From NCBI GenBank assembly GCA_003484955.1, contig DMZH01000002.1:145700-209699 (forward strand): a DNA stretch of 64,000 nt, read 5' to 3'. Source of the stretch: Candidatus Woesebacteria bacterium (GTDB lineage Bacteria; Patescibacteriota; Microgenomatia; UBA8517). The position numbers and the translations under genes are program-made. The notes under the pieces were generated by a model that worked only from the letters and a program-made list of their open reading frames with translations, made no database searches and was not told where the DNA came from. Positions 22,561 through 37,912 of the stretch are shown piece after piece (position 1 is the stretch's first letter; every line of letters begins with the position of its first letter).

Positions 22561-23723
22561 ATAGTTTATTTTCGCTGCAAAGCGTATTTCTTTTTTTGTT
22601 TTTGGCCCTTTTTCCTTTCGGACAAATTATCAGGTTAAGTTTTAATATAGGCAGTTTAAATATACCTCTTCAGCCTATCGACGTTGTGGTTGGATTAGGG
22701 GCGCTTTATTCAATTTTATTTGAAAAAGAAAAACCAAAAGTTTACAAATACCTTAAATATTTTTTGGTAGCTGCGGGTTTCTCATTCATTTTGTCGGTAT
22801 TCATTTTTAAGTACGAAGTTCTTTATGGCCTATTTTATCTGGTCCGTATTGTCGCTTATACATTCTTTTTAAATTATGTTTGGAATTTTGCTAAAAAAAG
22901 CTCTACCAACGGCCATTTACTTTCAAGCAGTCTTTTGACGATTTCGGTTATCTCGGCAGTTTTTGGTTGGATTCAACTTTTTGTTTTTCCGGATATTAAG
23001 CCATTTTTTGTTTACGGTTGGGATATGCACTTGTTCCGCCTGGTGGGCACTTTCCTGGATCCCACATTTTTGGGCCTAATTATAGTTTTCGGATTGTTGC
23101 TATCGATCAATCGATTCATTGATAGTAGAGAAAAAAAGTATTTATTAATTACAGTATTCCTTTTGGTGTCTCTGGCATTTACCTATTCAAGAGCCAGCTA
23201 TCTGGCATTTTTGGGGGGTATCTTTGTCATCGCTTTTACGGAAAAGAAGTTTAGAAAAATGATGGTTTTGGCGATTGCCCTTTTGGTTTTTGCTTTACTC
23301 TTGCCGACGGCAAGAAACCACAGCATAGAGCTGACACGTTCATTTAGTATTATTGCCAGGTTGGACAATTATAAGGAGACAGTTGAGGTGTTTAAAAAAT
23401 TCCCCGTATTTGGAGTCGGGTTTAATAATCTTTGTATAGCCAGAAATAAATATATCGGAATGGAGTCTTTTACCTCTCATGCATGTTCGGGGTCCGACTC
23501 AAGTTTGCTTTTGATTCTTGCAACAACCGGCACAATAGGCCTGATGGTATTCGCGGGAAGCATCCTTGGAGTATTCAAATCTCTAACCGAAAATCGTGAA
23601 GCACAAACTGTAATTGCGGTATCTATGGCACTGTTTATTCATAGTCTGTTTTCCAATTCCTTGTTTTTCCCTTGGGTAATGGGGTATGTTGTAATTCTTC
23701 TTGCGGTCAGCGTTACGAAGTAA
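22521..23723 (+). CDS. O-antigen ligase / polymerase-like membrane protein (Wzy_C-like)
   Basis: Polytopic membrane protein with a periplasmic loop TYSRASYLAFLGG typical of the O-antigen ligase family. Confidence 0.5.
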   Translation: MGKTMGITKKIKLDSLFSLQSVFLFLFLALFPFGQIIRLSFNIGSLNIPLQPIDVVVGLGALYSILFEKEKPKVYKYLKYFLVAAGFSFILSVFIFKYEVLYGLFYLVRIVAYTFFLNYVWNFAKKSSTNGHLLSSSLLTISVISAVFGWIQLFVFPDIKPFFVYGWDMHLFRLVGTFLDPTFLGLIIVFGLLLSINRFIDSREKKYLLITVFLLVSLAFTYSRASYLAFLGGIFVIAFTEKKFRKMMVLAIALLVFALLLPTARNHSIELTRSFSIIARLDNYKETVEVFKKFPVFGVGFNNLCIARNKYIGMESFTSHACSGSDSSLLLILATTGTIGLMVFAGSILGVFKSLTENREAQTVIAVSMALFIHSLFSNSLFFPWVMGYVVILLAVSVTK

Positions 23724-24444
23724 AGTTGAGGCTTATATTTTTTTCAGTAGTATTTCCTGCTTGATCGGTTGACTTTACATTAAAGGTATTCGAGCCTTCA
23801 TTTAGGGTCGTAGTATATTGAAAAATTCCCGAATCGTCAACTGAAATAATTCTGTCATTAATTGTAACTTTGGCGTCAGTTTCGGTCTTTCCTGTGATTG
23901 TAATTTGTCTTTGATTGGATCCAAAATAGCTGGAACCGTCTGAGGGTGAAGTTATTTCCAAATCAGGTGTTTTCTTGTCAAAAGTTATTTGATGGTCATC
24001 TGATTTTTGGCTTTGGTTTCCCGATTGATCGGTGGCGGTTGCCGCAAAAGTATTTATTCCATCCTGCAAGGTTACGCCAAACGAAAATTGTCCATCGTTG
24101 TCAGCCAAGACCTCTTGAGGACTTCCATTAAAAGTAAGTTTTACTGAGGCTCCCGATTCCGTATTACCTGTCAATGTCAGGGTTTGTTGGTTAGTGAATT
24201 CCGGAAAATATTTAAATTTAGGGGGTGGGGGCGGTGTAAAATCGGAGTTGCTGATTTTATTGTTATTACCTCTAAGACTGGAGACAAGTGAGGCAAGTCT
24301 GCCAAGAGCCGGTATTCCGATAAAATAAAGTATCGCAATGGCGGCAATTGTCAGCAATATATAAAAAGTAGCGCTTCTTGTGTTTTTTCTCTCCTCGGAA
24401 TTTATAAACCTTCTTGTAAACTTTTTCATTTTATTTTTGAGCAT
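23713..24444 (-). CDS. Membrane-anchored surface protein with two bacterial Ig-like (Big) domains
   Basis: N-terminal TM anchor, a PPPPP linker, and repeated TLTGNTESGASVKLTFNG...DQSGNQS / ITITGKTETDAKVTIND...DQAGNTT modules. The start codon lies inside the left 187-bp inverted repeat. Confidence 0.5.
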   Translation of the reverse strand: MLKNKMKKFTRRFINSEERKNTRSATFYILLTIAAIAILYFIGIPALGRLASLVSSLRGNNNKISNSDFTPPPPPKFKYFPEFTNQQTLTLTGNTESGASVKLTFNGSPQEVLADNDGQFSFGVTLQDGINTFAATATDQSGNQSQKSDDHQITFDKKTPDLEITSPSDGSSYFGSNQRQITITGKTETDAKVTINDRIISVDDSGIFQYTTTLNEGSNTFNVKSTDQAGNTTEKNISLNFTS

Positions 24445-24625
24445 GTTTATAATTTAGCTCGAACTCATTTTACAACAAAATACTAACAATTACATTTGCG
24501 TCAAGAAAAGGGGTTAAAGGGGAAATGAATTGACGCGAATGTCGTGTTGTCGCTCAGTCCCGCTTCGCGGGACTTCGCTAACTCTGTTCTCTTGCTCGCT
24601 CCTTTCAGTCGCTCGCAATACGCCA
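24439..24625. repeat. Left copy of a perfect 187-bp inverted repeat (IR187-L)
   Basis: Identical over all 187 nt to the reverse complement of 34539-34725. Contains the hairpin AGTCCCGC-TTCG-GCGGGACT. Confidence 0.9.
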
Positions 24626-25137
24626 AATGGTAAAGGGGTTATTTGTACAACCTTTGGTTGCTCAACATTTTCTCCGTTGCAAAAGTTTTCTGTAATCCGA
24701 GTATTTGCCCACCCACCCTAGAAAGGAGTTGGCGCTGCCCCCTCTGCACTCGCTAGGGCCCCCTATGGGCGGCCTTGCCGATGTTTTACTTTTGTTTATC
24801 TAAGTGTTCAGTATCTTCCTCGCCTCGTGCAAAAAACATTTGCCCCTTCGGGGTTGCACTCGGCTTTTCTCAAACACTTTTAAGTAGCGTTGCTCGTTCC
24901 GGGGGGCGTTCCTTTTTTTCCGCCCCCGCGCTTTTATTTTTTCCCTTTTCGCGCGTGGTCGGCGGAAACCTGCTTCGCAGGATAGCGCCAATGCAGGGAA
25001 CAGAAAACCAATAGGCCAAAATGGTGGAAATTGGCCGATTCTAGCTTCAAATTGGACAAAATCTAAAACAAAGAAGCTTCCACAGTTTTACTTCACAAAC
25101 ACTTCGCTTTAGTACAAGAGCGAAGTATACTAACTGT
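24626..25137 (+). ncRNA. Candidate structured noncoding RNA (GC-rich, several UUCG-tetraloop hairpins); identity unknown
   Basis: This ~510-nt stretch has no credible ORF and is far more GC-rich than the rest of the window. Hairpins CCCC-TTCG-GGGG (24844-24854), CCTGC-TTCG-GCAGG (24969-24981) and GGGGGGCG...CGCCCCC are present. The IR hairpin CCCGC-TTCG-GCGGG lies upstream. Confidence 0.25.
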
Positions 25138-25776
25138 ATGGCAGACGACACACCACAAGACACTACAACAACTCAAGACACACCTGCAGATCAACCAGTA
25201 GTTCAACCCGAACCACCGAAAGTCGAGGAGACTCCTGACGAAATTCCACCAACTGAAACTTCAGCAGAAGAAAAACCAACACCAACAGAAGAACCCAAAC
25301 CAGAAAATCCTCCCGAAGTTCCTGAAATTCCCCGAACTCCCGAAACATCCAAGGAGGAAACTAAAACAGAAGAGAAACCAACAGAAACAAAAGCAGAAGA
25401 ACTAAAAACAGACGAGAAACCCAAAGACGTGTCCGCCGAAGTCTCGACGAAGGTGGAAGAAGTTAAACCAGAAGTACCCGCTCCCGAATCTCCCAAACAA
25501 CCCGAAAAACCTATACCCGCCGAAACTTCAGTGAAGGAGGGCCAACCAAACCTTGACGACTTAAGAGACAAAGCAAACAAAGAGAGACAAGACAGAAAAC
25601 AGGAACATTTATCAGAAGTTGAGAAGTTAGCTAAATCAAAACAAATTAACAATGATGATGTCCGTGAGCTTTTGCACGTTTCCCAAAGTACAGCAACAAA
25701 TTATCTGGAAGAATTGACCAAACAGGGGAAAATCAAGAAGTCTGGGAAGGCAAAAGCTACTTCGTACTCTTCTTAA
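25138..25776 (+). CDS. Acidic low-complexity (P/E/T/K-rich) protein with a C-terminal winged-HTH DNA-binding domain
   Basis: About 150 aa of PEPK/TPTEE-type disordered repeats, then DVRELLHVSQSTATNYLEELTKQGKIKKSG (wHTH). Confidence 0.45.
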   Translation: MADDTPQDTTTTQDTPADQPVVQPEPPKVEETPDEIPPTETSAEEKPTPTEEPKPENPPEVPEIPRTPETSKEETKTEEKPTETKAEELKTDEKPKDVSAEVSTKVEEVKPEVPAPESPKQPEKPIPAETSVKEGQPNLDDLRDKANKERQDRKQEHLSEVEKLAKSKQINNDDVRELLHVSQSTATNYLEELTKQGKIKKSGKAKATSYSS

Positions 25777-26053: not shown

Positions 26054-26109
26054 AATTAACTATATCACGTTAATCCAATCAATTAAATAATTTCTGTCAG
26101 TCATATTTC

Positions 26110-26138
26110 TTGACAAAGTAATTCTTTTCATTTAATAT
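26110..26138 (+). promoter_or_regulatory. Sigma70-like promoter candidate (TTGACA-17-TAATAT)
   Basis: TTGACA at 26110-26115, a 17-nt spacer, and TAATAT at 26133-26138. Confidence 0.35.
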
Positions 26139-26261
26139 GAATTGACCGTTTGATACGGCGCACTTTTAAACAGATATTTATTTTCTTATTTGGAAATCGA
26201 CAGTTGTTTAATTACAACTAAGTACAGGGTAACTTGTACATTAAGGTATTTTTTTAATACC

Positions 26262-26286
26262 GCAGATGAAAATCTGCCGCTTTTTT
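26262..26286 (+). terminator. Rho-independent terminator candidate (GCAGAT-GAAA-ATCTGC then CCGC TTTTTT)
   Basis: A 6-bp stem with a GNRA loop followed by a T6 tract, ~125 nt downstream of the promoter candidate. Confidence 0.35.
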
Positions 26287-26482
26287 CCGGGACATGCACA
26301 GCAAGATGTATATGCATTAAGTTATGTGTCATTGCCAGGATCACAGGCATAATGGGGCTAAGATATGACAGTAGAAATATCGTGGCACGTCAGAAATATT
26401 TAAGGAGGCTCAAGATCTTTCTTTTAGGATTTCCTTTTTAAGACGGGCACTTGGCATTTTTGCCAGGTTAGAAAGGATAAAT

Positions 26483-26680
26483 ATGCTGAAAAAGTACAAC
26501 CAACTTATTAGTCTTATTGATGAGTTGGCCAAAGACGAAGATCTGAAGCCAGGTAAAAAGGATATACTTAAGAGGGCATTGAAGGAACTGTTCCACGCTC
26601 TTGATACTAAAAATATCAAAGGTGTGAGAAAAGCAATCGATCAGCTCTCAAAAGAACTGCTAATTGTTTACCATCCTTAA
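26483..26680 (+). CDS. Small helical hypothetical protein (65 aa), first gene of the RT/R-M cluster
   Basis: ORF with a good RBS-like context (AGGATAAATATG); no motif recognised. Confidence 0.3.
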   Translation: MLKKYNQLISLIDELAKDEDLKPGKKDILKRALKELFHALDTKNIKGVRKAIDQLSKELLIVYHP

Positions 26681-26713
26681 TTATTTCCATAAGGACCCGT
26701 TTGACGGATTTTT

Positions 26714-27043
26714 ATGGAAGTACCTATTATGAACTACGGAAAAGCACTCAAAATTGCACGCTCCGCGCGAAACATTTCTCAGAAAGATTTAAGTGATGCT
26801 ATTAGTTTGGATCCAAGCTATATTTCGCTTATAGAAAAAGGTAAAAGAATACCGACTATCGAAACTCTTGAGAAAATTGTAAAAAGTCTCAATATCCCAA
26901 TACATCTGTTTTTTCTATTGGCATCTGGCAAGAATCAAATGAAGAAAATGCCGTCTAGTAAAAAGGCGGGGGTAGCAGAGTTGTTGTTGGATCTTCTTCT
27001 TTCCACTGAAAAAAATGAGCACTCTCCAAAAAACAAAAATTAA
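26714..27043 (+). CDS. XRE-family helix-turn-helix transcriptional regulator
   Basis: ISQKDLSDAISLDPSYISLIEKGKRIPTIETLEKIVKSL matches the Cro/C1 HTH. The 3' end overlaps the RT start by 29 nt. Confidence 0.7.
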   Translation: MEVPIMNYGKALKIARSARNISQKDLSDAISLDPSYISLIEKGKRIPTIETLEKIVKSLNIPIHLFFLLASGKNQMKKMPSSKKAGVAELLLDLLLSTEKNEHSPKNKN

Positions 27044-27992
27044 ATCAGTTGCTGAACTTTCGCAAACTCTAAAGGTTGGTGTTAAGGAATTCGTCAAAAC
27101 CGCTAAAAATGCAAATTTGTTTTATAGACCATTTGATCTTAGCAAAAAAGGATCTGAAAAATGGAGACACATAGATAATCCAACAGGCAAACTCAAAATA
27201 ATCCAAAAGGCTATAAACAAACAAATTTTGCGCGACTTAATGTTTCAACTTCCACCTAATATCATGGGTGGTATCGAGAACAAATCTATTCTTGAAAATG
27301 CCAAAGTACACGTTGGACAAGAAATGGTTGTCACGATAGATATCAAAAATTGCTTTCCTAAAACAAAAAATGAGGTCATCTTTACCATCTGGAAAAATTT
27401 ATTGGGATTCGAGCCGAATAGTGCAAGGTTATTAACCCAATTAACTACAACAAAGGGACACCTACCTCAAGGTTCCCCTGCGAGTCCATCTTTATCAAAT
27501 CTTGCCCTACTTCCGATTTCAAAAGAAATTTTGAATTATTCAAAAAAACATCATTTGAACTTTACTATATATGTTGACGATATTACATTATCCGGAAAGA
27601 AAAGTTCAGCATTAGATTCAATTAGCCCAGTTGTTAAAATCATTCAAAAATATGGCTATGCAATAAGAAATAAGAAAGTTAAAAAAATGCCTTCATATAA
27701 AACTCAAACGACAACAGGAATCCAACTAAACTCTGAAATTTCCATTGGAAAGCAGAAGATTGATGAAATTAGGAAGGAAATAATTAATCTTGCCAAACTA
27801 CAAAAGCCGTATATCACTAAAAAATCAATTTTTAGCAAAATTGATTATGTAAAAAAAATTTCGCCAGAAAAAGGACAAAAACTACTAGAGTTTGCCAATA
27901 TGATATTGGAGGAAGATATTGATTATATTGCTGTTGATCCAGAAAAAGACGAAAAAAGAGATTGCAATGGAAAGGCCTGCCTAGCTAAATAG
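27015..27992 (+). CDS. Reverse transcriptase, retron-type (no maturase or endonuclease domains)
   Basis: RT motif 1/2 TIDIKNCFPKT, motif 4 LPQGSPASPSLSNLAL (retron-like LPQGAPTSPxLSNL), motif 5 YVDDITLSG, and a downstream TTGIQLN that matches the retron VTG region; 325 aa. Confidence 0.7.
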   Translation: MSTLQKTKIKSVAELSQTLKVGVKEFVKTAKNANLFYRPFDLSKKGSEKWRHIDNPTGKLKIIQKAINKQILRDLMFQLPPNIMGGIENKSILENAKVHVGQEMVVTIDIKNCFPKTKNEVIFTIWKNLLGFEPNSARLLTQLTTTKGHLPQGSPASPSLSNLALLPISKEILNYSKKHHLNFTIYVDDITLSGKKSSALDSISPVVKIIQKYGYAIRNKKVKKMPSYKTQTTTGIQLNSEISIGKQKIDEIRKEIINLAKLQKPYITKKSIFSKIDYVKKISPEKGQKLLEFANMILEEDIDYIAVDPEKDEKRDCNGKACLAK

Positions 27993-28052
27993 GTCAATTA
28001 CTTCGCTTTAGTACATTCGTACAAGAGCAAAAAGTGCTAAAATACACACATA

Positions 28053-30320
28053 ATGGCTAATTCATTAAATCTTTCTGACAACGAAAAGCGAGATATTATT
28101 AAATTTTTACAAGAAGGCAAATCTCTTCCTGAAAAATATAGATTTCTTCTTTTTAATGACGATCGTGAAGTTGAGCTTTTGTGGAATGGTAAAACAAATG
28201 AAGTTACTAATGTAGTATTGCCCTTTCAGGTAATAGAGCAAATTGACGAGCCAAGAAGTGATGCCAAATTCGGAATGCAAAACACACTTTTTGATACTAC
28301 TGGTCGACAAATTACAGGGTGGACAAATAAACTTATTTGGGGCGACAACAAATTAATACTTTCTTCACTCAAAAATGGTCCACTTCGAAAAGGAATTGAA
28401 GCACAAGGCGGTATAAAGTTGATTTACATTGACCCGCCCTTTGACGTTGGTGCTGACTTTTCAATGAATATAGAAGTTGGAGAAGATAGTTTTACCAAAA
28501 AACCCTCTGTAATTGAGGAAATTGCATATAGGGATACTTGGGGCAAAGGTGCAGATAGTTTTATTGCAATGATTTATCAAAGATTAAAATTGATGCACGA
28601 TTTATTGGCTAACGATGGAAGTATCTATGTCCATTGCGATTGGAGATTAAATAGCTATATGCGTTTAATCCTTGATGAAATTTTCGGTAAAGAAAATTAT
28701 AGAAATGAAATTGTTTGGAAACGCACATATTCTACAAAAGCACAGAGTATTAGCTTTGGTAAAACTCATGAACTTATTTTGTTTTACGCAAAAAGTGAAA
28801 GTACTAAATTAAAACAACTTTATCAAAAGCCAGATGAAGGGTATGTAGATAAATATTTTAATAAAACGGACGAAAATGGCAAAAAGTATCAATCTTTAAG
28901 CTTAACCCAACAAGGACAAGGACCAGCTAGATATTTTGGAGACAAACTAATAGAACCGACTAAGGGAATGCATTGGATTTGGTCGCAGGATAGAATCACT
29001 AAAGCTTTTCAAGAAGGTAGAATAGTTTTTACTAAAAATGATTTTCCAAGACTTAAAAAATACCTTGAGGATTGGAATGAACAAGGTCGTCCAATTGATG
29101 GTCTTTGGGTGGATGATGAAGTCGGGCCTCTAAACTCGTGGCACAGTGAATCACTCGATTATCCAACTCAAAAACCTGAATCGATGCTCACTCGCATAAT
29201 TCAATCCAGCAGTAATGAGGGAGATTTGGTTGCAGATTTTTTCTGTGGATCGGGAACAACACTTGCAGTTGCTGAAAAATTGAATAGAAAGTGGATAGGG
29301 TCTGATCTGGGAAAATTTGGAATACATACAACAAGAAAAAGAATGATAGGAGTGCAAAGAGAACTTAAGAAAGATGGCAAAGATTTTAGAGCTTTTGAAA
29401 TATTAAATGTTGGTAAGTATGAAAGAGATAGTTATCTAACAACAAATGATGATTTGAGAGCTGAAGAAAGAATAAAGCAAGCAGAAAGGAAAGAAAAAGA
29501 ATTCGTAAAACTTATTGTTACTGCCTATAAAGCAGAACTCATTGAATCATTTGTAAATATTGTAGGTAAAAAACGAGATAGACTAATTGCGGTTGGTCCA
29601 ATAAATACTCCTGTATCCTCTAAGTTTATTCAACAAGTAGTAAATGAATGCAAAGATAAAAATTTAACTAAAGTAGATATTTTAGGTTTTGACTATGAAA
29701 TGGGTATGAACATTGAGGAATATAGAAGTCAAAGTATTGATATTGTTTTTAAGGTAATTCCGAGAGAAGTTTTTGATAAACAAGCTGTAGAAAAAGGACA
29801 AGTTAAGTTTTACGATGTCGCATATATTGACGCAAAACCAGTTGTAAAGGGTGGAGCTAAAAGCAAGGAGTTGTCCATCGAGCTTACTGACTTTTCAGTT
29901 TTTTATAACCAAGATGCGAGTGATGATGTTTCTGAAAGTTTAAGACCTGGTGGAACAAAAGTTGTTGTTGAAAATGGACAAGTTGTTAAATTAACAAAAG
30001 ATAAAGAGTCTGATGTTGTATCAAAAGAAGTTTTAACTAAAAAATGGAGTGACTGGATTGATTATTGGGCAGTTGATTATAATTTTTCTGATAGAAAAGA
30101 AGTAATAATTGACCAAGACGATAAAGGTGAATATGTTGAGGCTTGGACAGGGGACTATATTTTTGATAACGAATGGCAAAGTTTTAGAACAAATAAAAAT
30201 AGAAATCTTGAATTAACTTCAACTCCAAGAGAAATGATAAAAGGAAATTATAAAGTTGCTGTTAAAGTTGTTGATATTTTTGGCAATGATACAACTAAAA
30301 TTATTGAGGTAAATATTTAA
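28053..30320 (+). CDS. mod: Type III restriction-modification Mod subunit (beta-class N6-adenine/N4-cytosine DNA methyltransferase)
   Basis: Motif IV IYIDPPF precedes motif I DFFCGSGTTLAVAEKLNRKWIGSDL (order IV-TRD-I); 755 aa. Confidence 0.75.
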   Translation: MANSLNLSDNEKRDIIKFLQEGKSLPEKYRFLLFNDDREVELLWNGKTNEVTNVVLPFQVIEQIDEPRSDAKFGMQNTLFDTTGRQITGWTNKLIWGDNKLILSSLKNGPLRKGIEAQGGIKLIYIDPPFDVGADFSMNIEVGEDSFTKKPSVIEEIAYRDTWGKGADSFIAMIYQRLKLMHDLLANDGSIYVHCDWRLNSYMRLILDEIFGKENYRNEIVWKRTYSTKAQSISFGKTHELILFYAKSESTKLKQLYQKPDEGYVDKYFNKTDENGKKYQSLSLTQQGQGPARYFGDKLIEPTKGMHWIWSQDRITKAFQEGRIVFTKNDFPRLKKYLEDWNEQGRPIDGLWVDDEVGPLNSWHSESLDYPTQKPESMLTRIIQSSSNEGDLVADFFCGSGTTLAVAEKLNRKWIGSDLGKFGIHTTRKRMIGVQRELKKDGKDFRAFEILNVGKYERDSYLTTNDDLRAEERIKQAERKEKEFVKLIVTAYKAELIESFVNIVGKKRDRLIAVGPINTPVSSKFIQQVVNECKDKNLTKVDILGFDYEMGMNIEEYRSQSIDIVFKVIPREVFDKQAVEKGQVKFYDVAYIDAKPVVKGGAKSKELSIELTDFSVFYNQDASDDVSESLRPGGTKVVVENGQVVKLTKDKESDVVSKEVLTKKWSDWIDYWAVDYNFSDRKEVIIDQDDKGEYVEAWTGDYIFDNEWQSFRTNKNRNLELTSTPREMIKGNYKVAVKVVDIFGNDTTKIIEVNI

Positions 30321-33011
30321 ATGGCATTACATAAAGATTTTCCAAAAGATCCGTACGCAATACTTGACCCTTCGATCAGGTGGTTTCCTGCTGACGAAGT
30401 CTTAAGAGAAAAAGGATATGATAAATTACTTCCACCACTCGTTGCTGATCTCCGAAAAAAAGTAAAAGAATGGAGAGATAAAAATTATGAAGGTGCGAGT
30501 GAAACTTCACAATCACTTTTGAATTGGTGGTTTAAGGAAGATCATGTTGTATACGATCAACATGGTGTTTCTTCAAATTTTAGATATTACTTTGCGCAAA
30601 GAGAAGCTTTAGAAACTGTCATATGGCTTTATGAAGTTGCCAAGGTAAAAGATAAATACGATCTAATTAGATACAACTCAACTCAAGTATTAAGTGCGGG
30701 TATGTTTACTGAGGATTGGTTAAGATTTGTAATCAAAATGGCAACAGGAGCAGGAAAGACAAAAGTTATGAGTTTAATTATTGCTTGGGCATATTTTCAT
30801 AGAAAATATGAGTTAGATTCTAATCTTTCAAAAAACTTTCTATTAATTACTCCAAATGTAATAGTATTTGAAAGAATCAAAAATGACTTTGAAGGTCTAA
30901 AGATATTTTTTACAGATCCGGTTTTACCTGATAATGGATATAATGGTCAAAATTGGCAAGATGATTTTCAATTAACATTACACTTACAAGATCAGTTAAG
31001 TACCATTTCAGATACCGGAAATATATTTTTAACTAACATACACAGAGTTTTTGAAGGAAATATTAAAGAAGCGAGTTTAGATGACGAAGATGTTTCTTCG
31101 TACTTCTTAGGTCGTAAACCAGTTACAAAAACTAACGATTCGACAGTTGACCTTGGTATGATTGTTCGAGATATTGATGAACTGATTGTTATAAATGATG
31201 AAGCCCACCATATACACGATGAAAATATGGTTTGGTATAAATCTATACTTGATATTGACAACAAGTTAAAACAAAAAGGATCAGGTCTCGCACTTCAATT
31301 AGATCTAACAGCCACTCCAAAAAAGAATGATGGCTCGATATTCGTGCAGGTAATATCTGACTATCCTTTAGTCGAAGCAATTCATCAAAGAATTGTCAAA
31401 AATCCAGTAATACCTGATGGGGCAAGTCAGGGGAAATTAAAGGAAAACCAAAGTATTTTGTTTAGTGAAAAATATAGAGACTATATTAATCTTGGAGTTG
31501 AAGAATGGAGGAAAACATATAAAACCTTAGAACCGATGGGTAAAAAATCAATTTTATTTATAATGACGGATGATACAAAAAACTGTGATGAAGTAGCTGA
31601 ATATATTAAAACAAGTTTTTCTGATCTTCGCGATGCAGTTTTAACAATCCACACTAATAAAAGCGGAGAGATTTCAGAAAGCGTTGGTGGTAAAAACGAA
31701 GAAGATTTAATACTTCTCCGAAAACAAGCTAATGAAATTGATAGTTGGGAAAGTCCTTTCAAAGTAATAGTTTCTGTAATGATGCTTAAAGAAGGCTGGG
31801 ATGTAAAAAACGTAACTACTATTGTAGGTCTTAGACCTTACGCAGCGGATTCAAAGATTCTTCCAGAACAAACGCTTGGTAGAGGTTTAAGGAGAATGTT
31901 TTTTGGCAGAGATGATGTTGAAGAATATGTAAGTGTAATTGGTACCACCGCTTTTATGGAATTTGTTGAATCAATTCAAGGGGAGGGTGTAATGCTTGAG
32001 CGAAAAGCTATGGGTGCAGGATCAAAGCCAATTACACCTGCAGTTATTGAAGTTGATAAGGAAAATCCAAATAAAAATATTGAAAAACTTGATATAGAAA
32101 TACCTGTAATGACTCCAAGAATCCAAAGGGAATATAAAAATCTTGCCAATTTAGATGTTTCTCAATTTGGAAATAAGAAAGTAAGTGTAAAGACTTTCTC
32201 AGAACAAGAAAAAAGAGAAATTATTTTCAAAGATGTTGTTGACGAAAAAATACATCATACAACTGTACTAACTGGCGATATTGAACCAGATTATAGAAGT
32301 GTAATTGGTTTTTTTGCCCAAGCTGTAATGAGAGAACTTAGGCTTTTTGGTTGTTATGACATTTTGTTTGAAAAAGTAAAGGAATTTATCGAGAAATATT
32401 TATTTGATATTACAGTTGATTTATCAGATCTCAATATATTAAGAAACTTGTCAGAAGTAGAATATATAAAATTTATTAAAGACACATTCAAAGATGCCAT
32501 TAATAACTTAACAATTCAAGATACTGGAGACACTGAAATCAAAAATTATATTAAAATTAGTGAAGCAAGACCATTTGTTGTTAATGATAAATCATATTTA
32601 ATTCCAAAAAAATCAGTATTTAATAAAATTGTAGGAGATAGTAATTTTGAACTTACTTTTGCTGATTTTCTTGAAAACTGTGAAGATGTAATTTCATTTT
32701 CCAAAAATTATCAAAACAAAGAAGCGAGTGCATTAAGAATTGAATATAAAAATTCAGAAGGGTTAATCGCAAACTATTATCCAGACTTTTTCGCAAAATT
32801 GGATGATAAAACTGTTTACATAATTGAAACAAAAGGCCGAGAGGAAGATGATGATAAACTAAAATTTGAAAGATTACAAAAATGGTGCATCGATGTAAAC
32901 AGTCGTCAAACAAAAGTGGAATATAAATCTCTATATATTAAGCAAGAAGAATGGGAAAATAATAAATTAAAAAATTTTGACGAGGTTGTTAGGTTATTTA
33001 CATCTATTTAA
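30321..33011 (+). CDS. res: Type III restriction enzyme Res subunit (SF2 DEAH helicase plus C-terminal PD-(D/E)xK endonuclease)
   Basis: Walker A ATGAGKTKVM, motif II VINDEAHH, helicase C region VSVMMLKEGWDVKNV, and a C-terminal YYPDF...VYIIETKG nuclease motif. The start abuts the mod stop. Confidence 0.75.
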   Translation: MALHKDFPKDPYAILDPSIRWFPADEVLREKGYDKLLPPLVADLRKKVKEWRDKNYEGASETSQSLLNWWFKEDHVVYDQHGVSSNFRYYFAQREALETVIWLYEVAKVKDKYDLIRYNSTQVLSAGMFTEDWLRFVIKMATGAGKTKVMSLIIAWAYFHRKYELDSNLSKNFLLITPNVIVFERIKNDFEGLKIFFTDPVLPDNGYNGQNWQDDFQLTLHLQDQLSTISDTGNIFLTNIHRVFEGNIKEASLDDEDVSSYFLGRKPVTKTNDSTVDLGMIVRDIDELIVINDEAHHIHDENMVWYKSILDIDNKLKQKGSGLALQLDLTATPKKNDGSIFVQVISDYPLVEAIHQRIVKNPVIPDGASQGKLKENQSILFSEKYRDYINLGVEEWRKTYKTLEPMGKKSILFIMTDDTKNCDEVAEYIKTSFSDLRDAVLTIHTNKSGEISESVGGKNEEDLILLRKQANEIDSWESPFKVIVSVMMLKEGWDVKNVTTIVGLRPYAADSKILPEQTLGRGLRRMFFGRDDVEEYVSVIGTTAFMEFVESIQGEGVMLERKAMGAGSKPITPAVIEVDKENPNKNIEKLDIEIPVMTPRIQREYKNLANLDVSQFGNKKVSVKTFSEQEKREIIFKDVVDEKIHHTTVLTGDIEPDYRSVIGFFAQAVMRELRLFGCYDILFEKVKEFIEKYLFDITVDLSDLNILRNLSEVEYIKFIKDTFKDAINNLTIQDTGDTEIKNYIKISEARPFVVNDKSYLIPKKSVFNKIVGDSNFELTFADFLENCEDVISFSKNYQNKEASALRIEYKNSEGLIANYYPDFFAKLDDKTVYIIETKGREEDDDKLKFERLQKWCIDVNSRQTKVEYKSLYIKQEEWENNKLKNFDEVVRLFTSI

Positions 33012-33698
33012 ATGTATAAACTTTCACCATCAGATTTTGCATATTTATACGAGGAATGTAAGCTTTGCTATTACTTAAAGATTAAACATGGAATATACCA
33101 ACCAAGCATGCCAATGCCTGGAGTTTTTTCTGCAATAAATACTCGACTTCAAGGAAATTTGGTTGGTAAAAATCTTCACACGCTTTCAGAAAAGTTGCCA
33201 GATGGGATCGTTGAAAATCAAGAAGGTTGGGTTGAATCAAAACCAGTTCCTGATACGGAAGTATTTATAAAAGGCAAATACGATTTATTAGTTAAACTTC
33301 CTGATGACACGCACCTATTGGTTGATCTAAAAATTAGCACACCGGGGGATGATAAAATTGAAAAATATAAAACTCAACTTAATGCCTACAAATTTGCTCT
33401 TGAAAATCCAGCTAACGGAAACCCTATAAAATTAACAAGGCTTGGACTTTTGATTTTTTATCCAGACCAAGTTAGTTTTGAGAAAGGAAGTGCTACCCTA
33501 ACTTTTCCTCCAAGCTGGTTAGAGGTTCCTGCTGATCAAACAGGATTTTTAGCTTTTGCAAAAAGAATAGATAAATTACTTTCGGGTCCAACACCAGAGG
33601 AGGGAAAAGAATGTAAATGGTGCAAATATAGACATTTGGGAGATACCCTTTCTCATACTGATACTGGAAGTGTGAAGGATGACACAATTCCATTTTAA
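33012..33698 (+). CDS. Cas4/RecB-like PD-(D/E)xK nuclease with four Cys (probable Fe-S cluster), not CRISPR-linked
   Basis: N-terminal CKLC, core GKYDLLV ... LLVDLKIS (D...D-x-K), a QLNAY (QxxxY) motif, and a C-terminal CKWC. The start abuts the res stop. Confidence 0.55.
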   Translation: MYKLSPSDFAYLYEECKLCYYLKIKHGIYQPSMPMPGVFSAINTRLQGNLVGKNLHTLSEKLPDGIVENQEGWVESKPVPDTEVFIKGKYDLLVKLPDDTHLLVDLKISTPGDDKIEKYKTQLNAYKFALENPANGNPIKLTRLGLLIFYPDQVSFEKGSATLTFPPSWLEVPADQTGFLAFAKRIDKLLSGPTPEEGKECKWCKYRHLGDTLSHTDTGSVKDDTIPF

Positions 33699-33946
33699 GG
33701 AGTTAACTTTGGTGTTGTACAACAGTGAAGTATATTGACAATTTGCCACCAAATGGTAACAATGGTATTATACTTCTCCAATGACTAAAACTAACAAATC
33801 TCAACCAACTAAAAAAGCAGTTTATTTTATTGCTACAAAATATAAAAATAGGCAGACTCGTGTCAGTCTATATACAAAAGACTGGAAAAGTGTCGCTAAA
33901 AGCGATGCTACGGATAAACTCGGATATTCATTAGAATAACTTCTCC

Positions 33947-34459
33947 ATGGGTAAGAAAAATAAATCTCCGTTAACCCCAATGGATTTTCAGTTGGGTTCT
34001 GGAGGCGTCATTCCCTCCACCCAGGAAGCTTTTGGACCAAACAAAGAATTCTCTGGAAATATACGAAAAGAAGAAAGCGGCGCGACTGCAGAATTTAAAA
34101 AAGCTCTTGGTACCCAGATAGATGTCGAAATTGGTGAGTTGAAACAGTTCCCTTCGGATAAGGAGTTTTTTGTGTTTATAATTCAATACTTTGTTTCAGA
34201 CAAAGAATATAAGGCCAGAGACCTGGACAATATGGCTAAAACCATGCTGGACTTATTGAAAGGAAGATTTTATAAAGACGATGGACAAGTTAAGACACTC
34301 TTAGTTGGTAAGAAGATGGAAAAACGTGTTCCTAAAAATTTTATATATTTTGCATTAAAAGAAATGAAGGATGACAGAGATATTGATGCCCTGAAGATTT
34401 CCGGGCTAGAAAGATCAGTCACTCTTTTCAATGAACAAGTGGCAAAAGGACTTTGCTGA
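33947..34459 (+). CDS. rusA: RusA-like Holliday junction resolvase (phage-type)
   Basis: ARDLDNMAKTMLDLLKGRFYKDDGQVKTLLVGKK matches the RusA motif DLDNxxKxxLDxLxGxxxxDDxQV...K. Confidence 0.55.
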   Translation: MGKKNKSPLTPMDFQLGSGGVIPSTQEAFGPNKEFSGNIRKEESGATAEFKKALGTQIDVEIGELKQFPSDKEFFVFIIQYFVSDKEYKARDLDNMAKTMLDLLKGRFYKDDGQVKTLLVGKKMEKRVPKNFIYFALKEMKDDRDIDALKISGLERSVTLFNEQVAKGLC

Positions 34460-34538: not shown

Positions 34539-34725
34539 TGGCGTATTGCGAGCGACTGAAAGGAGCGAGCAAGAGAACAGAGTTAGCGAAGTCCCGCGAA
34601 GCGGGACTGAGCGACAACACGACATTCGCGTCAATTCATTTCCCCTTTAACCCCTTTTCTTGACGCAAATGTAATTGTTAGTATTTTGTTGTAAAATGAG
34701 TTCGAGCTAAATTATAAACATGCTC
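34539..34725. repeat. Right copy of the perfect 187-bp inverted repeat (IR187-R)
   Basis: The reverse complement of 24439-24625, with 187/187 identity. Confidence 0.9.
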
Positions 34726-34773
34726 CCAAGATAAATTTTTTGAAGAGGCGCGAAGCGCCGACCAAGCGAATTG
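34725..34773. repeat. 49-bp inverted repeat, copy a (IR49-a), immediately abutting IR187-R and upstream of the recombinase gene
   Basis: CCCAAGATAAATTTTTTGAAGAGGCGCGAAGCGCCGACCAAGCGAATTG is the reverse complement of 36275-36324 apart from a 1-nt indel. Confidence 0.85.
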
Positions 34774-34838: not shown

Positions 34839-36386
34839 ATGGTAAATAAATTCTTCCTCTACGCCAGAAAGTCCACAGATGTAGAAGATATGCAGGTTCT
34901 TTCAATTGAAGCTCAAATTAATGAACTCCGTGAGTTAGCCAAGAAAGAAGGTTTAGAGATAGTAGATGAGCTAATTGAAAAGAAATCTGCAAAAAATCCC
35001 GGAAGGGTAATTTTTAATTCCATGCTTGATAGAATTGAAAAAGAAGAAGCTAATGGAATTATATCTTGGCACCCAGATAGACTTGCCAGGAATAGTGTGG
35101 ACGGAGGAAGAATTATTTACCTCTTAGATAGAAATAAATTATCTGCCCTCAAATTTAATACCTTTTGGTTTGAATCTACTCCTCAAGGAAAGTTCATGCT
35201 TAGTATTGCATTTTCTCAAAGTAAATATTATGTAGATTCCTTGTCAGAAAACACCAAAAGAGGACTTCGCCAAAAAGCTAAAAATGGATATTGCCCCAGT
35301 GTTGCCCCAATTGGTTATTTAAATGATTCAAGAAACAAAACTATTGTTTTAAATAAAAAAGTTGGTCCAATTATCAAAGAAACTTTTGAACATTATAGTA
35401 ACGGCAATATCCTAATGCGTGAAGTAAGTAGCTTTTTGGCTGAACGTGGAATACTTCTTCCTAGTGGTAGACCCTTCGGTCTTTCAAGAATTAGAAAAAT
35501 CTTAACAAATCCATATTATTATGGTCATTTTATATATGCGGGAGAAGTATATGAGGGCAGACACGACCCAATAATTTCAAAGCTACTTTTTGACAAAGTC
35601 CAAGAAATTATTAATAGAAAAAATAAACAGTGGAGTAAGGCTAGAGTAGAAAGAGTTCACAAGCCTTACGTTGGACTTTTGACGTGTGGTGAGTGCGGAA
35701 TGGGCATTACAGCTGATTTTAAAGATAGACATTATAAAAACGGCAATTGTAGCCATTTTAATTATTACAGGTGTACTAAAAAGGATAAAACTACAAAATG
35801 TCTACAATCCCATATCCGCGAGGAGGACTTGGATAGTCAGCTCACCACACTTCTCAAAAAGTACACTTTGAAAAATGCTTGGGCAATAAAAATGAATAAG
35901 AAACTAGATATTGAATCAAGAGATATTGCCCAATCATCCCTTTCTGTCATTTCTCTCAAGAGAAAAGAAATTGATAATTTGAATTCTAAACTCCAGCTTC
36001 TTTTAGACAGTTATTTAGATCAAATAACTGATAAAGAAATGTACAAAAAAAAGAAGCTTGAGTTATTCTCTCAAAAGAAAACTTTTGAGGAACAAATTAT
36101 CAATTTGCAAAACCAGAAAGGGAATTGGATCGAACCTATGAGAAAGTGGATATCCGAAGCAAGTGAAGTGGATCAAATAATATCAACAAACAATAAAGAC
36201 GATAAAAAGGTTCTCGCTTCAAAAATCTTCGGCTCGAACCTCTTTTTGGAAGACAAAAAAGTCCGTGGAGTAGGCCAATTCGCTTGGTCGGCGCTTCGCG
36301 CCTCTTCAAAAAATTTATCTTGGGAGCCGAGAGTGGGGATCGAACCCACGACCTGCGGTTTACGATACCGCCGCTCTGCCAACTGA
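34839..36386 (+). CDS. Large serine recombinase (resolvase catalytic domain, recombinase domain and zinc ribbon)
   Basis: N-terminal FLYARKSTDVEDMQ...Q with the catalytic Ser in YxRxST, the resolvase core GIISWHPDRLARN, a recombinase domain, and a Zn ribbon CGECGMG...C...YYRC. The 3' end reads ~60 nt into tRNA-Thr (...GIEPTT...). Confidence 0.75.
   Translation: MVNKFFLYARKSTDVEDMQVLSIEAQINELRELAKKEGLEIVDELIEKKSAKNPGRVIFNSMLDRIEKEEANGIISWHPDRLARNSVDGGRIIYLLDRNKLSALKFNTFWFESTPQGKFMLSIAFSQSKYYVDSLSENTKRGLRQKAKNGYCPSVAPIGYLNDSRNKTIVLNKKVGPIIKETFEHYSNGNILMREVSSFLAERGILLPSGRPFGLSRIRKILTNPYYYGHFIYAGEVYEGRHDPIISKLLFDKVQEIINRKNKQWSKARVERVHKPYVGLLTCGECGMGITADFKDRHYKNGNCSHFNYYRCTKKDKTTKCLQSHIREEDLDSQLTTLLKKYTLKNAWAIKMNKKLDIESRDIAQSSLSVISLKRKEIDNLNSKLQLLLDSYLDQITDKEMYKKKKLELFSQKKTFEEQIINLQNQKGNWIEPMRKWISEASEVDQIISTNNKDDKKVLASKIFGSNLFLEDKKVRGVGQFAWSALRASSKNLSWEPRVGIEPTTCGLRYRRSAN
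36275..36324. repeat. 50-bp inverted repeat, copy b (IR49-b), inside the recombinase 3' coding region and ending 1 nt from the tRNA-Thr 3' end
   Basis: Reverse complement of 34725-34773 with one extra nucleotide. Contains the hairpin GGCGC-TTCG-(C)GCGCC. Confidence 0.85.
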
Positions 36387-36397
36387 GCTACCTCGGC
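36325..36397 (-). tRNA. tRNA-Thr (anticodon CGT)
   Basis: Manual cloverleaf on the minus strand: acceptor GCCGAGG/TCTCGGC (G7-U66 wobble), D-arm GCTC-AGTTGGCA-GAGC, anticodon stem GCGGT/ACCGC with loop ATCGTAA, T-arm GTGGG-TTCGATC-CCCAC, discriminator U. Confidence 0.8.
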
Positions 36398-36429
36398 TTA
36401 TGTGCTCAATTATAGCATTTCTGGGCGTG

Positions 36430-37225: not shown

Positions 37226-37489
37226 CGGGATCGACGAGATTCGGACTCGCAACCTCTTCCGTGCACCTTTTTGTTTCCAAAAAGTTTGGACTATCTCATC
37301 ATCCTAAAAATAGGAGCCAGGTATATAGTCTCTACACATTTACTACGTTCACATAAACTGAACGCAGCTTTAGCTCGGGATTGCCATCTTAAAGGTTTCC
37401 CCGAATTAGCCTGGTTTTACATTCCAGATCACTCTGGAACGCTGCCACAATCGACAGGGAAGCGCTCTAGCCAGTTGAGCTACGACCCC
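37226..37489 (-). tRNA. Split tRNA gene, probably tRNA-Asp(GTC), with a ~190-nt intervening sequence (putative intron) in the anticodon loop
   Basis: The 5' half (37458-37489) is GGGGTCG-TA-GCTC-AACTGGCTA-GAGC-G-CTTCC, followed by loop nts CTGT.... The 3' half (37226-37260) is GGAAG-AGGTT-GCGAG-TCCGAAT-CTCGT-CGATCCC-G. The halves pair into a canonical cloverleaf only if 37261-37457 is removed. The predicted mature loop is CTGTCAC, and the intervening sequence ends in G. Confidence 0.5.
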
Positions 37490-37501
37490 AATACACGTAT
37501 T

Positions 37502-37912
37502 TTACCAGTAATAGTCTTTAGCCGCAATTACACCTTTTTCTTGGTTATTTTTTGATTTTTCTATTCTTATACTTAGTTTCTTTTTACCAACAAAAATAGC
37601 TTTTGGGAAAAAGCATAATTTATCAATTTTTGGAATATACACGATCAGGGCGTCAACCTCATTTTTCTTGTATGTATAAGTATTTTTTCTTCTGTCAACA
37701 TACTCAAGTTTTACAACAACAGATCCATGCGTATTTGAAGGTTTTCCGTTGGCATATTTTACTTGTAAGCGGGAGAGACGAAGACCATCATCAATAATTA
37801 AATCATATCGGGCATCAAACAAAGGTCTGCTGGGCAAATATCCCAATTCAAATGCTCTTAACTCGGCCTTACTTACGGCCAATTGTCCTTTTGTGTTGGT
37901 GGTTGTCTTCAT
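37502..37912 (-). CDS. Hypothetical protein, possible PD-(D/E)xK (Hjc-like) nuclease fold
   Basis: Weak E...YDLIID...LQVKY pattern (E-D-QxK); 136 aa. Confidence 0.25.
   Translation of the reverse strand: MKTTTNTKGQLAVSKAELRAFELGYLPSRPLFDARYDLIIDDGLRLSRLQVKYANGKPSNTHGSVVVKLEYVDRRKNTYTYKKNEVDALIVYIPKIDKLCFFPKAIFVGKKKLSIRIEKSKNNQEKGVIAAKDYYW

Follow-up and report, generated by a model that had tools for sequence, protein, structure and literature searches.

What occupies the 693 nucleotides (nt) that separate the start of ORF243 from ORF212 (positions 24445-25137), two open reading frames (ORFs) of the 64,000-nt stretch of Candidatus Woesebacteria DNA analyzed here (contig DMZH01000002.1, hereafter the window)? 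An initial reading based on the letters alone (hereafter the sequence-only reading) had proposed a structured RNA inside a cassette delimited by repeats. The present analysis revealed base pairs that are maintained beyond what sequence relatedness explains, i.e. a structured non-coding RNA. It stands for a well-supported class of large structured RNAs in Microgenomates that appears not to have been described. Judging from its distribution, this RNA is conserved within the candidate phyla radiation (CPR), across its Microgenomates branch, and is owned by the host, here a Levybacteria-like member of this branch, rather than by the defence cassette. Other sequences that were compared with the window carry L numbers.

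Compensatory changes and fold of the RNA

The absence of any credible ORF in this region was confirmed, as the gap holds just low-complexity ORFs of 41-79 amino acids (aa). Its GC content is indeed raised, but "far above average" was an overstatement, since the excess is moderate: 0.483 for positions 24556-25137 versus 0.393 for the AT-rich window. The core of the RNA (24708-24992) reaches 0.544. The region folds more stably than its dinucleotide shuffles (z = -3.96 for 24540-25140, about -4 on both strands), as does the core (z = -3.17), and CTTCGC is enriched in it (four of the 10 copies of the window lie within these 600 nt). A sensitive self-search of the window gave a sole match, a 16-mer common to the upstream region of the mod gene.

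The conclusion is carried by homologues, which were detected with nhmmer profiles and whose long and short forms were aligned separately: 28 long-form sequences with less than 93% identity (alignment A5) and 16 short-form sequences (alignment A6). The long form, carried by most lineages, gives extracts of 465-589 nt including about 45 nt of flanks, i.e. an RNA of about 420-540 nt, and the clade of the window carries a short form of 285 nt that corresponds to the core and has a reduced domain B. On A5, RNAalifold predicted 49 pairs, of which 26 show compensatory double changes. A standard pair is formed in 95.1% of the A5 cells compared to 80.9% in shuffled alignments, and double changes are found in 171 cells compared to 54±5.5, none of 500 shuffles reaching either observed value; with partners slid by 1-3 columns, only about 50% of the cells were paired and 21-34 showed double changes. 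Likewise, 96.3% of the A6 cells are paired compared to 87.5% in shuffles (0/500), with 69 double-change cells compared to 22±3.6 in shuffles (0/500) and 7-15 in slid controls. The search for compensatory changes that had been proposed for aligned homologues therefore gave a strong signal in both alignments, and this signal, together with the lack of any Rfam match, strongly supports the claim of a folded RNA rather than junk.

Folded on its own, the window sequence has a minimum free energy structure that agrees with the comparative model, in which a single-stranded C-rich 5′ tail would be followed by a helix, P1, joining the ends around two GC-rich domains, A and B (Table 1). In A5, P1 (GUUGGCGGC/GCCGCCAAC in the long form) exhibits double changes in its outer pairs, and one-sided changes or none in its inner pairs. 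The long-form equivalent of the helix closing domain A (columns 114-118/358-362) has one pair changed from AU to GC in 10 sequences, and that of hairpin H3 (columns 151-158/163-170) has double changes in five of its eight pairs and a G-U pair (151/170) retained in 27 of the 28 sequences. Long-range helices covary heavily, and seven of the eight pairs of the helix formed by columns 564-571/620-627 carry double changes. In A6, this is also the case for all four tip pairs and six of the eight outer pairs of the central hairpin. The long-form counterpart of the reduced domain B is H5/H6, where UCCGC..CGCCCCCGCC pairs with GGCGGGGGCG.GCGGA. A candidate pseudoknot would join GCGC/AGAG ahead of H3 to GCGC/CUCU behind it.

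The pairs also indicate on which strand the constraint acts. G-U pairs largely outnumber A-C mismatches (67:10 in A5, 73:11 in A6), an asymmetry that argues for pairing on the + strand. This bears on the proposal that the conserved stretch would be a feature of the DNA only (recombinase attachment region, protein-binding palindromes or replication element). It is true that serine recombinase genes are immediate neighbors of the locus in two cases (the window and L013), that the stems consist of perfect palindromes, that the palindrome at 25010-25040 is found in either orientation, and that GCGAAGC, which is read here on the minus strand, is a stable DNA mini-hairpin. However, helices whose strands are 150-300 nt apart covary and G-U is tolerated on one strand only, which is the signature of pairing in a single-stranded RNA and not of sites in duplex DNA; a feature of the DNA only is therefore improbable. 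A replication origin had been considered because of a ParB gene near the L009 copy and was rejected (no linkage to dnaA, variable neighbors, covariation of RNA type).

The hairpins on which the sequence-only reading had relied were partly misread. All three exist but none has the TTCG loop attributed to it, since each is a palindrome with an odd centre and a UUC loop of 3 nt: GTCCCGC-TTC-GCGGGAC at 24557-24573 (read as CCCGC-TTCG-GCGGG), (G)CCCC-TTC-GGGG(T) at 24843 (read as CCCC-TTCG-GGGG at 24844) and CCTGC-TTC-GCAGG at 24969-24981 (read as CCTGC-TTCG-GCAGG). Two of them had been mis-transcribed. Homologues keep the triloop register (GCCGC-UUC-GCGGU, AAGGC-UCC-GCCUU, GCGCC-UUC-GGCGU), a register that a cUUCGg tetraloop would not allow; the argument drawn from UUCG tetraloops is thus wrong in detail, the loops being UUC triloops of the form stem-UUC-stem. 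Similarly, the G-run and the C-run taken as one stem belong to different helices in the covariation-supported model, 24901-24907 pairing with 24737-24743 and 24920-24931 with 24951-24962. Finally, the first of the three hairpins lies within the left arm of a 188-nt inverted repeat and is common to the L013 lineage only, and it lies outside the conserved RNA core.

Distribution, host context and downstream genes

Homologues of ORF212 (35-68% identity) are present in other Levybacteria and relatives, and a gene-free stretch of about 450-700 nt precedes them in L009, L011, L013, L015, L016 and L017. These stretches share 75-78% nucleotide identity with positions 24684-25137 of the window. Conservation of the RNA region equals or exceeds that of the adjacent coding sequence and includes invariant blocks of more than 70 nt. 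It is hardly conceivable that the region is a degenerate coding remnant, although it contains only short junk ORFs as such a remnant would: the RNA is more strongly conserved than the adjacent coding sequence, its invariant 70-nt blocks are broken by indels of 1-2 nt, and its variation is compensatory and not codon-like.

With a 20-nt pattern of the conserved hairpin, a search of the GTDB species genomes yielded 15 contigs holding near-identical copies. The label is Microgenomates or Patescibacteria for 12 of them (Davies-, Blackburn-, Beckwith- (complete genome CP011210.1), Shapiro- and Levybacteria, and unclassified members), and Gammaproteobacteria or Pseudomonadales for the other three, in which this RNA locus is nevertheless present. 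The main RNA was then detected in all 15 contigs with an nhmmer profile of its body. Significant profile matches were obtained at no fewer than about 80 loci from genomes and metagenomes, including many groundwater contigs; the metagenome scan used a pattern of the 5′ end, and counts of loci derived from it are lower bounds. Contigs with genes identical to those of the window belong to two assemblies from the Rifle aquifer, GCA_000994035.1 and GCA_000996165.1.

In L017, the genes are arranged in the order Wzy, ORF243-like, gap containing the RNA, ORF212-like and TrpR-like, which shows the ancestral arrangement in the host. The six loci named above are devoid of retron, restriction-modification (R-M) or recombinase cargo, apart from a serine recombinase gene abutting the L013 locus. 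Since the same host synteny is found in cassette-free genomes, the RNA, ORF212 and the TrpR-like gene are host genes lying between the repeat arms, and the defence genes were added downstream of the TrpR-like gene. The sequence-only reading had named as possibilities an RNA specific of the element or one associated with a prophage. Such an RNA could serve, for example, a defence system or the maintenance of the element, and the RNA does sit between 188-nt repeat arms that also bracket a retron, a type III R-M system and other defence genes. However, this origin is refuted by the homologues that show the same host synteny without these genes. The order observed in L017 and two pattern scans of IMG/VR viral contigs, which gave only chance matches and no homologue, also weigh against it, and it has very little probability left. 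No INPHARED phage matched the region in a blastn search.

The next gene could be assessed for 53 loci among the matches listed. An ORF212-like gene comes next, in the same direction, in 22 of them. The other 31 are followed by genes encoding a threonyl-tRNA synthetase or an ion-channel-like protein, or by mobile-element genes, which are strikingly frequent neighbors (XRE regulator, transposase-like protein, Bro-N protein, restriction genes). The main rival explanation is that of a long cis-acting 5′ leader, i.e. a riboswitch or a protein-binding leader, controlling the ORF212-like and TrpR-like genes. It agrees with the position of the RNA, co-directional with and immediately upstream of an ORF212-like gene in 22 loci of distant lineages, no terminator being seen between the two. 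However, the next genes differ in 31 of these 53 loci. Furthermore, a conserved -10-like hexamer (TATACT in the window, TGnTAGACT in distant relatives) is found 6 nt ahead of the ATG, which suggests that ORF212 could have its own promoter and a leaderless mRNA, and a size of 285-530 nt with two closed domains is far above that of known leaders. A leader is thus a possible but rather unlikely explanation.

The variety of next genes fits an autonomous RNA gene attracting integrating elements, and fits a dedicated leader less well. We therefore consider it fairly probable, from sequence comparison, that the locus is a chromosomal, host-owned gene for a stand-alone folded non-coding RNA acting in trans. 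Such a gene would be transcribed rightward as its own unit and would give a stable folded RNA acting in trans as a protein scaffold or as a catalytic or recognition core. Because of its conserved sequence, the locus would also attract mobile elements as a favored site of integration, a role that would account for the present location of the RNA between the arms of a recombinase-associated inverted repeat. We lean slightly towards the complete proposal, namely a new large ornate RNA specific of Microgenomates that would combine a conserved ribonucleoprotein or ribozyme function with that of a landing pad for mobile defence islands.

Several points weigh against these proposals. Transcription of the RNA, its independence from the downstream gene and its action in trans are what we infer from sequence, and the search for a promoter and an intrinsic terminator of the RNA gave none that was convincing. 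The 22 loci in which the RNA lies directly upstream of, and co-directional with, an ORF212-like gene also fit a cis-acting leader. Large structured RNAs are not usually pyrimidine-rich with UUC triloops as this one is, and the opposite strand would give GAA triloops. It should also be emphasized that the scans of genomes and metagenomes relied on strict sequence patterns and do not measure prevalence across Microgenomates. Finally, a full-text literature search of incomplete coverage found no description of this RNA, and an earlier description is possible.

Few large and intricately folded bacterial RNAs are known, and each of them has marked an important process (RNase P, transfer-messenger RNA (tmRNA), signal recognition particle (SRP) RNA, and the mysterious OLE, ROOL and GOLLD RNAs). 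CPR genomes are tiny and have little room for non-essential sequence. An RNA of 300-530 nt kept across a class-level lineage, with blocks more conserved than the neighboring proteins, points to an unrecognized core function, in organisms that so far cannot be cultured on their own. Annotators gain an RNA gene that is missed by current pipelines and that accounts for a recurrent "empty" intergenic region. Furthermore, this gene is likely to be a hot spot at which defence islands integrate into such genomes.

Mobile elements, defence genes and flanking motifs

The 9.9-kb segment bracketed by the 188-nt repeat carries, in order, the non-coding stretch, ORF212, a TrpR-like gene, a type VI retron, a type III R-M system, a Cas4-like nuclease gene and a RusA gene (Table 1). 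Within the left arm lie a promoter-like site that points leftward, to ORF243, and a possible site pointing rightward (TTGACG-17-CTCAGT); this stretch is common to L013 and L014 only, has diverged in other genomes and lies outside the RNA core. The right arm places a promoter-like site of the ORF243 type before a large serine recombinase gene. This gene adjoins the segment and is flanked by a perfect 52-nt inverted repeat, which is a copy of the 3′ end of a tRNA-Thr gene and its flank, and the recombinase ORF runs into the tRNA-Thr gene in antisense. In the JGI contig L007, the left end of the segment is connected to the recombinase side, so that the 9.9 kb are in the opposite orientation, and the older assemblies L005 and L008 are devoid of parts of the repeat arms. 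Either an inversion within the population or an ambiguity of the assembly graph would explain this.

The type VI retron, which encodes a helix-turn-helix (HTH) protein and a reverse transcriptase (RT), lies 1.7 kb downstream of the RNA, which raises the question of whether the latter could be the msr-msd RNA of the retron. Both are structured non-coding RNAs near a retron RT. However, ORF212 and a reverse-strand gene separate the RNA from the retron, no RT gene is present within 4-6 kb in L009, L011, L015, L016 and L017, the RNA being unlinked to an RT in all other genomes, and its size is well above that of a retron RNA. Furthermore, a separate AT-rich non-coding stretch of 660 nt with a 65-aa ORF and a strong promoter-like site (TTGACA-17-TAATAT at 26110-26138) directly precedes the retron genes, and the msr-msd RNA is probably located there, at 26140-26480. 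Taken as a whole, this distribution refutes the retron hypothesis, to which we give almost no credit.

Mobile genes lie beside the RNA at L013:3691-5289 and L029 (oriented) 1080-2000, and downstream of it in L055, L057, L071 and L132. They encode a serine recombinase, Bro-N/antirepressor-like proteins, an XRE regulator, a transposase-like HTH protein and restriction-like proteins. This gene content suggests that the RNA locus may be an integration hot spot. In L077 (588-1656), the RNA gene is split at about profile position 79 by an insertion sequence (IS) element encoding a 335-aa DDE (rve-type) transposase; an intron was considered for this interruption and rejected because of this transposase. 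A LOOT RNA (RF03000, 92 bits) was found at L013:309-431 (- strand), inside a small serine-recombinase element beside the RNA gene.

The palindromic hairpin at 25010-25040 is located 3′ of the RNA body in the window, 5′ of it in L022, L028, L031 and L041, and is inverted in L024 and L025. Because of this variable position and orientation, it was treated as an associated element outside the fold. A pairing of the 5′ CCCACCC tail with the GGUGG loop of this hairpin was dropped, as the hairpin is inverted in L024 and L025.

Other observations concern motifs near gene starts. The 16-mer ACTTCGCTTTAGTACA is present before ORF212 (25101-25116) and before the mod gene of the cassette (28000-28015). 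The motif CACTTCGCTTTAGTACAAGAG, as found in this 16-mer, precedes the RNA body in L022 and L041, and GTA(C/G)AAGA repeats are located upstream of the RNA in many lineages. A host regulator may use the motif common to 25101-25116 and 28000-28015 as a shared operator. A Shine-Dalgarno-like motif lies within 20 nt upstream of only one of the 37 ORFs of at least 200 aa in the window, and leaderless or Shine-Dalgarno-independent initiation may be common in this organism. An anti-Shine-Dalgarno mimic (CCUCCUUU, long form) was considered as a function of the RNA and dropped, since this motif is not found in the short form and a Shine-Dalgarno-like motif precedes only this one long ORF. Complements of the C-rich tail showed no pattern when looked for near the gene starts of the window.

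Further along the window, ARAGORN missed a tRNA-Asp(GUC) gene whose anticodon loop is interrupted by a group I intron (37230-37490, - strand; 5′ half GGGGTCGTAGCTCAACTGGCTAGAGCGCTTCCCTGTC, 3′ half ...ACGGAAGAGGTTGCGAGTCCGAATCTCGTCGATCCCGCC; Rfam Intron_gpI at 37267-37470, 79 bits), a situation that matches that in PMC13011429. A 136-aa ORF (37502-37912) lies just upstream of it.

Table 1. Coordinates of the RNA, its flanking elements and the neighboring cassette in the window
Feature	Position	Strand	Remarks
ORF243	23713-24444	-	Ig-like domains; left neighbor of the gap
Perfect inverted repeat, 188 nt	24438-24625 and 34539-34726		brackets 9.9 kb
Two adjacent inverted-repeat pairs and recombinase area	24438-24625, 34539-34773, 34839-36386, 36276-36398		
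Conserved structured RNA, short form	24694-24992	+	leader TAATCCG..., then core; 75-78% identity to L009-L015; nhmmer, covariation, minimum free energy fold
Single-stranded 5′ motif CCCACCCACCC	24708-24718	+	all nine C positions invariant in A5 and A6; two A vary rarely
P1, 5′ strand GUUGGCGCU	24728-24736	+	pairs with 24984-24992, closes the whole fold
Domain A	24737-24907	+	H2, GCCCCCU 24737-24743 with GGGGGGC 24901-24907; H2b, 24748-24753 with 24892-24897
H3 hairpin UAGGGCCCCC-UAU-GGGCGGCCUUG	24754-24777	+	contains a conserved G-U pair
Central hairpin	24822-24864	+	outer stem 24822-24831 with 24855-24864; tip CCCC-UUC-GGGG 24843-24853
Domain B, reduced	24909-24967	+	UUCC 24909-24912 with GGAA 24964-24967; CCG.CC.CGCGC 24920-24931 with GCGCG.GG.CGG 24951-24962
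Terminal hairpin CCUGC-UUC-GCAGG	24969-24981	+	UGCGC-UUC-GCGCA in relatives; one pair GC to CG in 4 sequences
P1, 3′ strand AGCGCCAAU	24984-24992	+	partner of 24728-24736
Palindromic hairpin AAUAGGCCAAAAUGGUGGAAAUUGGCCGAUU	25010-25040	+	separate from the fold, very conserved; near-identical in 15 genome contigs
Promoter/operator-like block CACTTCGCTTTAGTACAAGAGCGAAGTATACT	25098-25131	+	invariant in 5 genomes; -10-like TATACT ends 6 nt before the ORF212 ATG
ORF212	25138-25776	+	disordered Pro/Glu-rich N-terminus, winged-helix C-terminus
Type VI retron	26060-27992		HTH 26714-27043 (PADLOC HTH_VI 8.6e-22); RT 27015-27992 (RT_VI 4e-69)
Defence island	28053-34459		
Type III Mod	28053-30320		defence island
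Type III Res	30321-33011		defence island
Cas4-like PD-(D/E)XK nuclease	33012-33698		defence island
RusA-like resolvase	33947-34459		defence island

Comparison with known RNAs

The search of the window and 27 related loci (28 sources) against Rfam 15 at the gathering score did not identify any family. A cmscan at E ≤ 10 on both strands of three divergent members (window 24300-25300, L028 4000-5000 and L030 6300-7100) gave only noise (IMES-2, E = 3.7; sucC, chrB-b, RT-6 and similar, E of about 0.4-9). The covariance-model scan advised by the sequence-only reading therefore gave no match to the ROOL, GOLLD, HEARO, OLE and raiA models, either at the gathering score or at E ≤ 10, and the lack of RNase P, tmRNA, SRP and 6S signatures that this reading had reported by eye is corroborated by the Rfam scans.

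A very divergent form of a known housekeeping RNA nevertheless had to be weighed, RNase P RNA being the serious candidate. It resembles the RNA of the window by its size, its ends paired in P1, its GC-rich helices in an AT-rich genome, an apparently single copy, its wide conservation and the fact that it is missed by standard annotation. Lui et al. reported that divergent RNase P RNAs from CPR fall below Rfam thresholds, some being found only as low as 5 bits (PMC8172020). However, the same work found type-A RNase P RNAs in its Microgenomatia genomes (PMC8172020), and RF00010 and RF00011 gave no match even at E ≤ 10 in our three divergent members. Neither the P4 pseudoknot, nor P2 stacked on P1, nor CR-I (GGAAAGUCC) and CR-V (ACAGAA..GGCUUA) are found among the invariant columns or supported helices: the strand next to P1 has its partner in the middle of the molecule, and P1 encloses two independently closed domains, devoid of P4 and of CR-I to CR-V. 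A tmRNA was rejected since ARAGORN and Rfam are negative in the region; furthermore, L029 has a normal tmRNA gene (1177-1547) 5 kb from its copy of the RNA, which argues against this identity and, more generally, against a housekeeping RNA. A 6S RNA was also rejected, as a single irregular hairpin of about 180-200 nt with a central bubble is expected and the RNA found here is branched, with two domains and 285-530 nt, and has no Rfam 6S match. A disguised housekeeping RNA is thus an improbable explanation.

The locus can also be compared with the tRNA and tmRNA genes used as integration targets, which likewise associate a conserved RNA gene with an integrase or recombinase gene and its cargo, as seen in the window, L013, L029, L055, L057, L071 and L132. 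It differs from them because its RNA is not tRNA-like (ARAGORN and Rfam negative) and because its role as a landing site is deduced from its neighbors.

The closest parallels are the OLE, ROOL, GOLLD and raiA RNAs. The RNA of the window differs from them by the lack of any match to their Rfam models on either strand, by its Microgenomates hosts, and by its pyrimidine-rich sequence with UUC triloops. Many copies of ROOL and GOLLD are phage-borne, which, judging from the IMG/VR scans, is not the case here. However, like all of these RNAs, it is hundreds of nt long, combines many covarying helices with conserved single-stranded motifs, occurs in a single lineage, is repeatedly found beside certain genes and has an obscure biochemical role.

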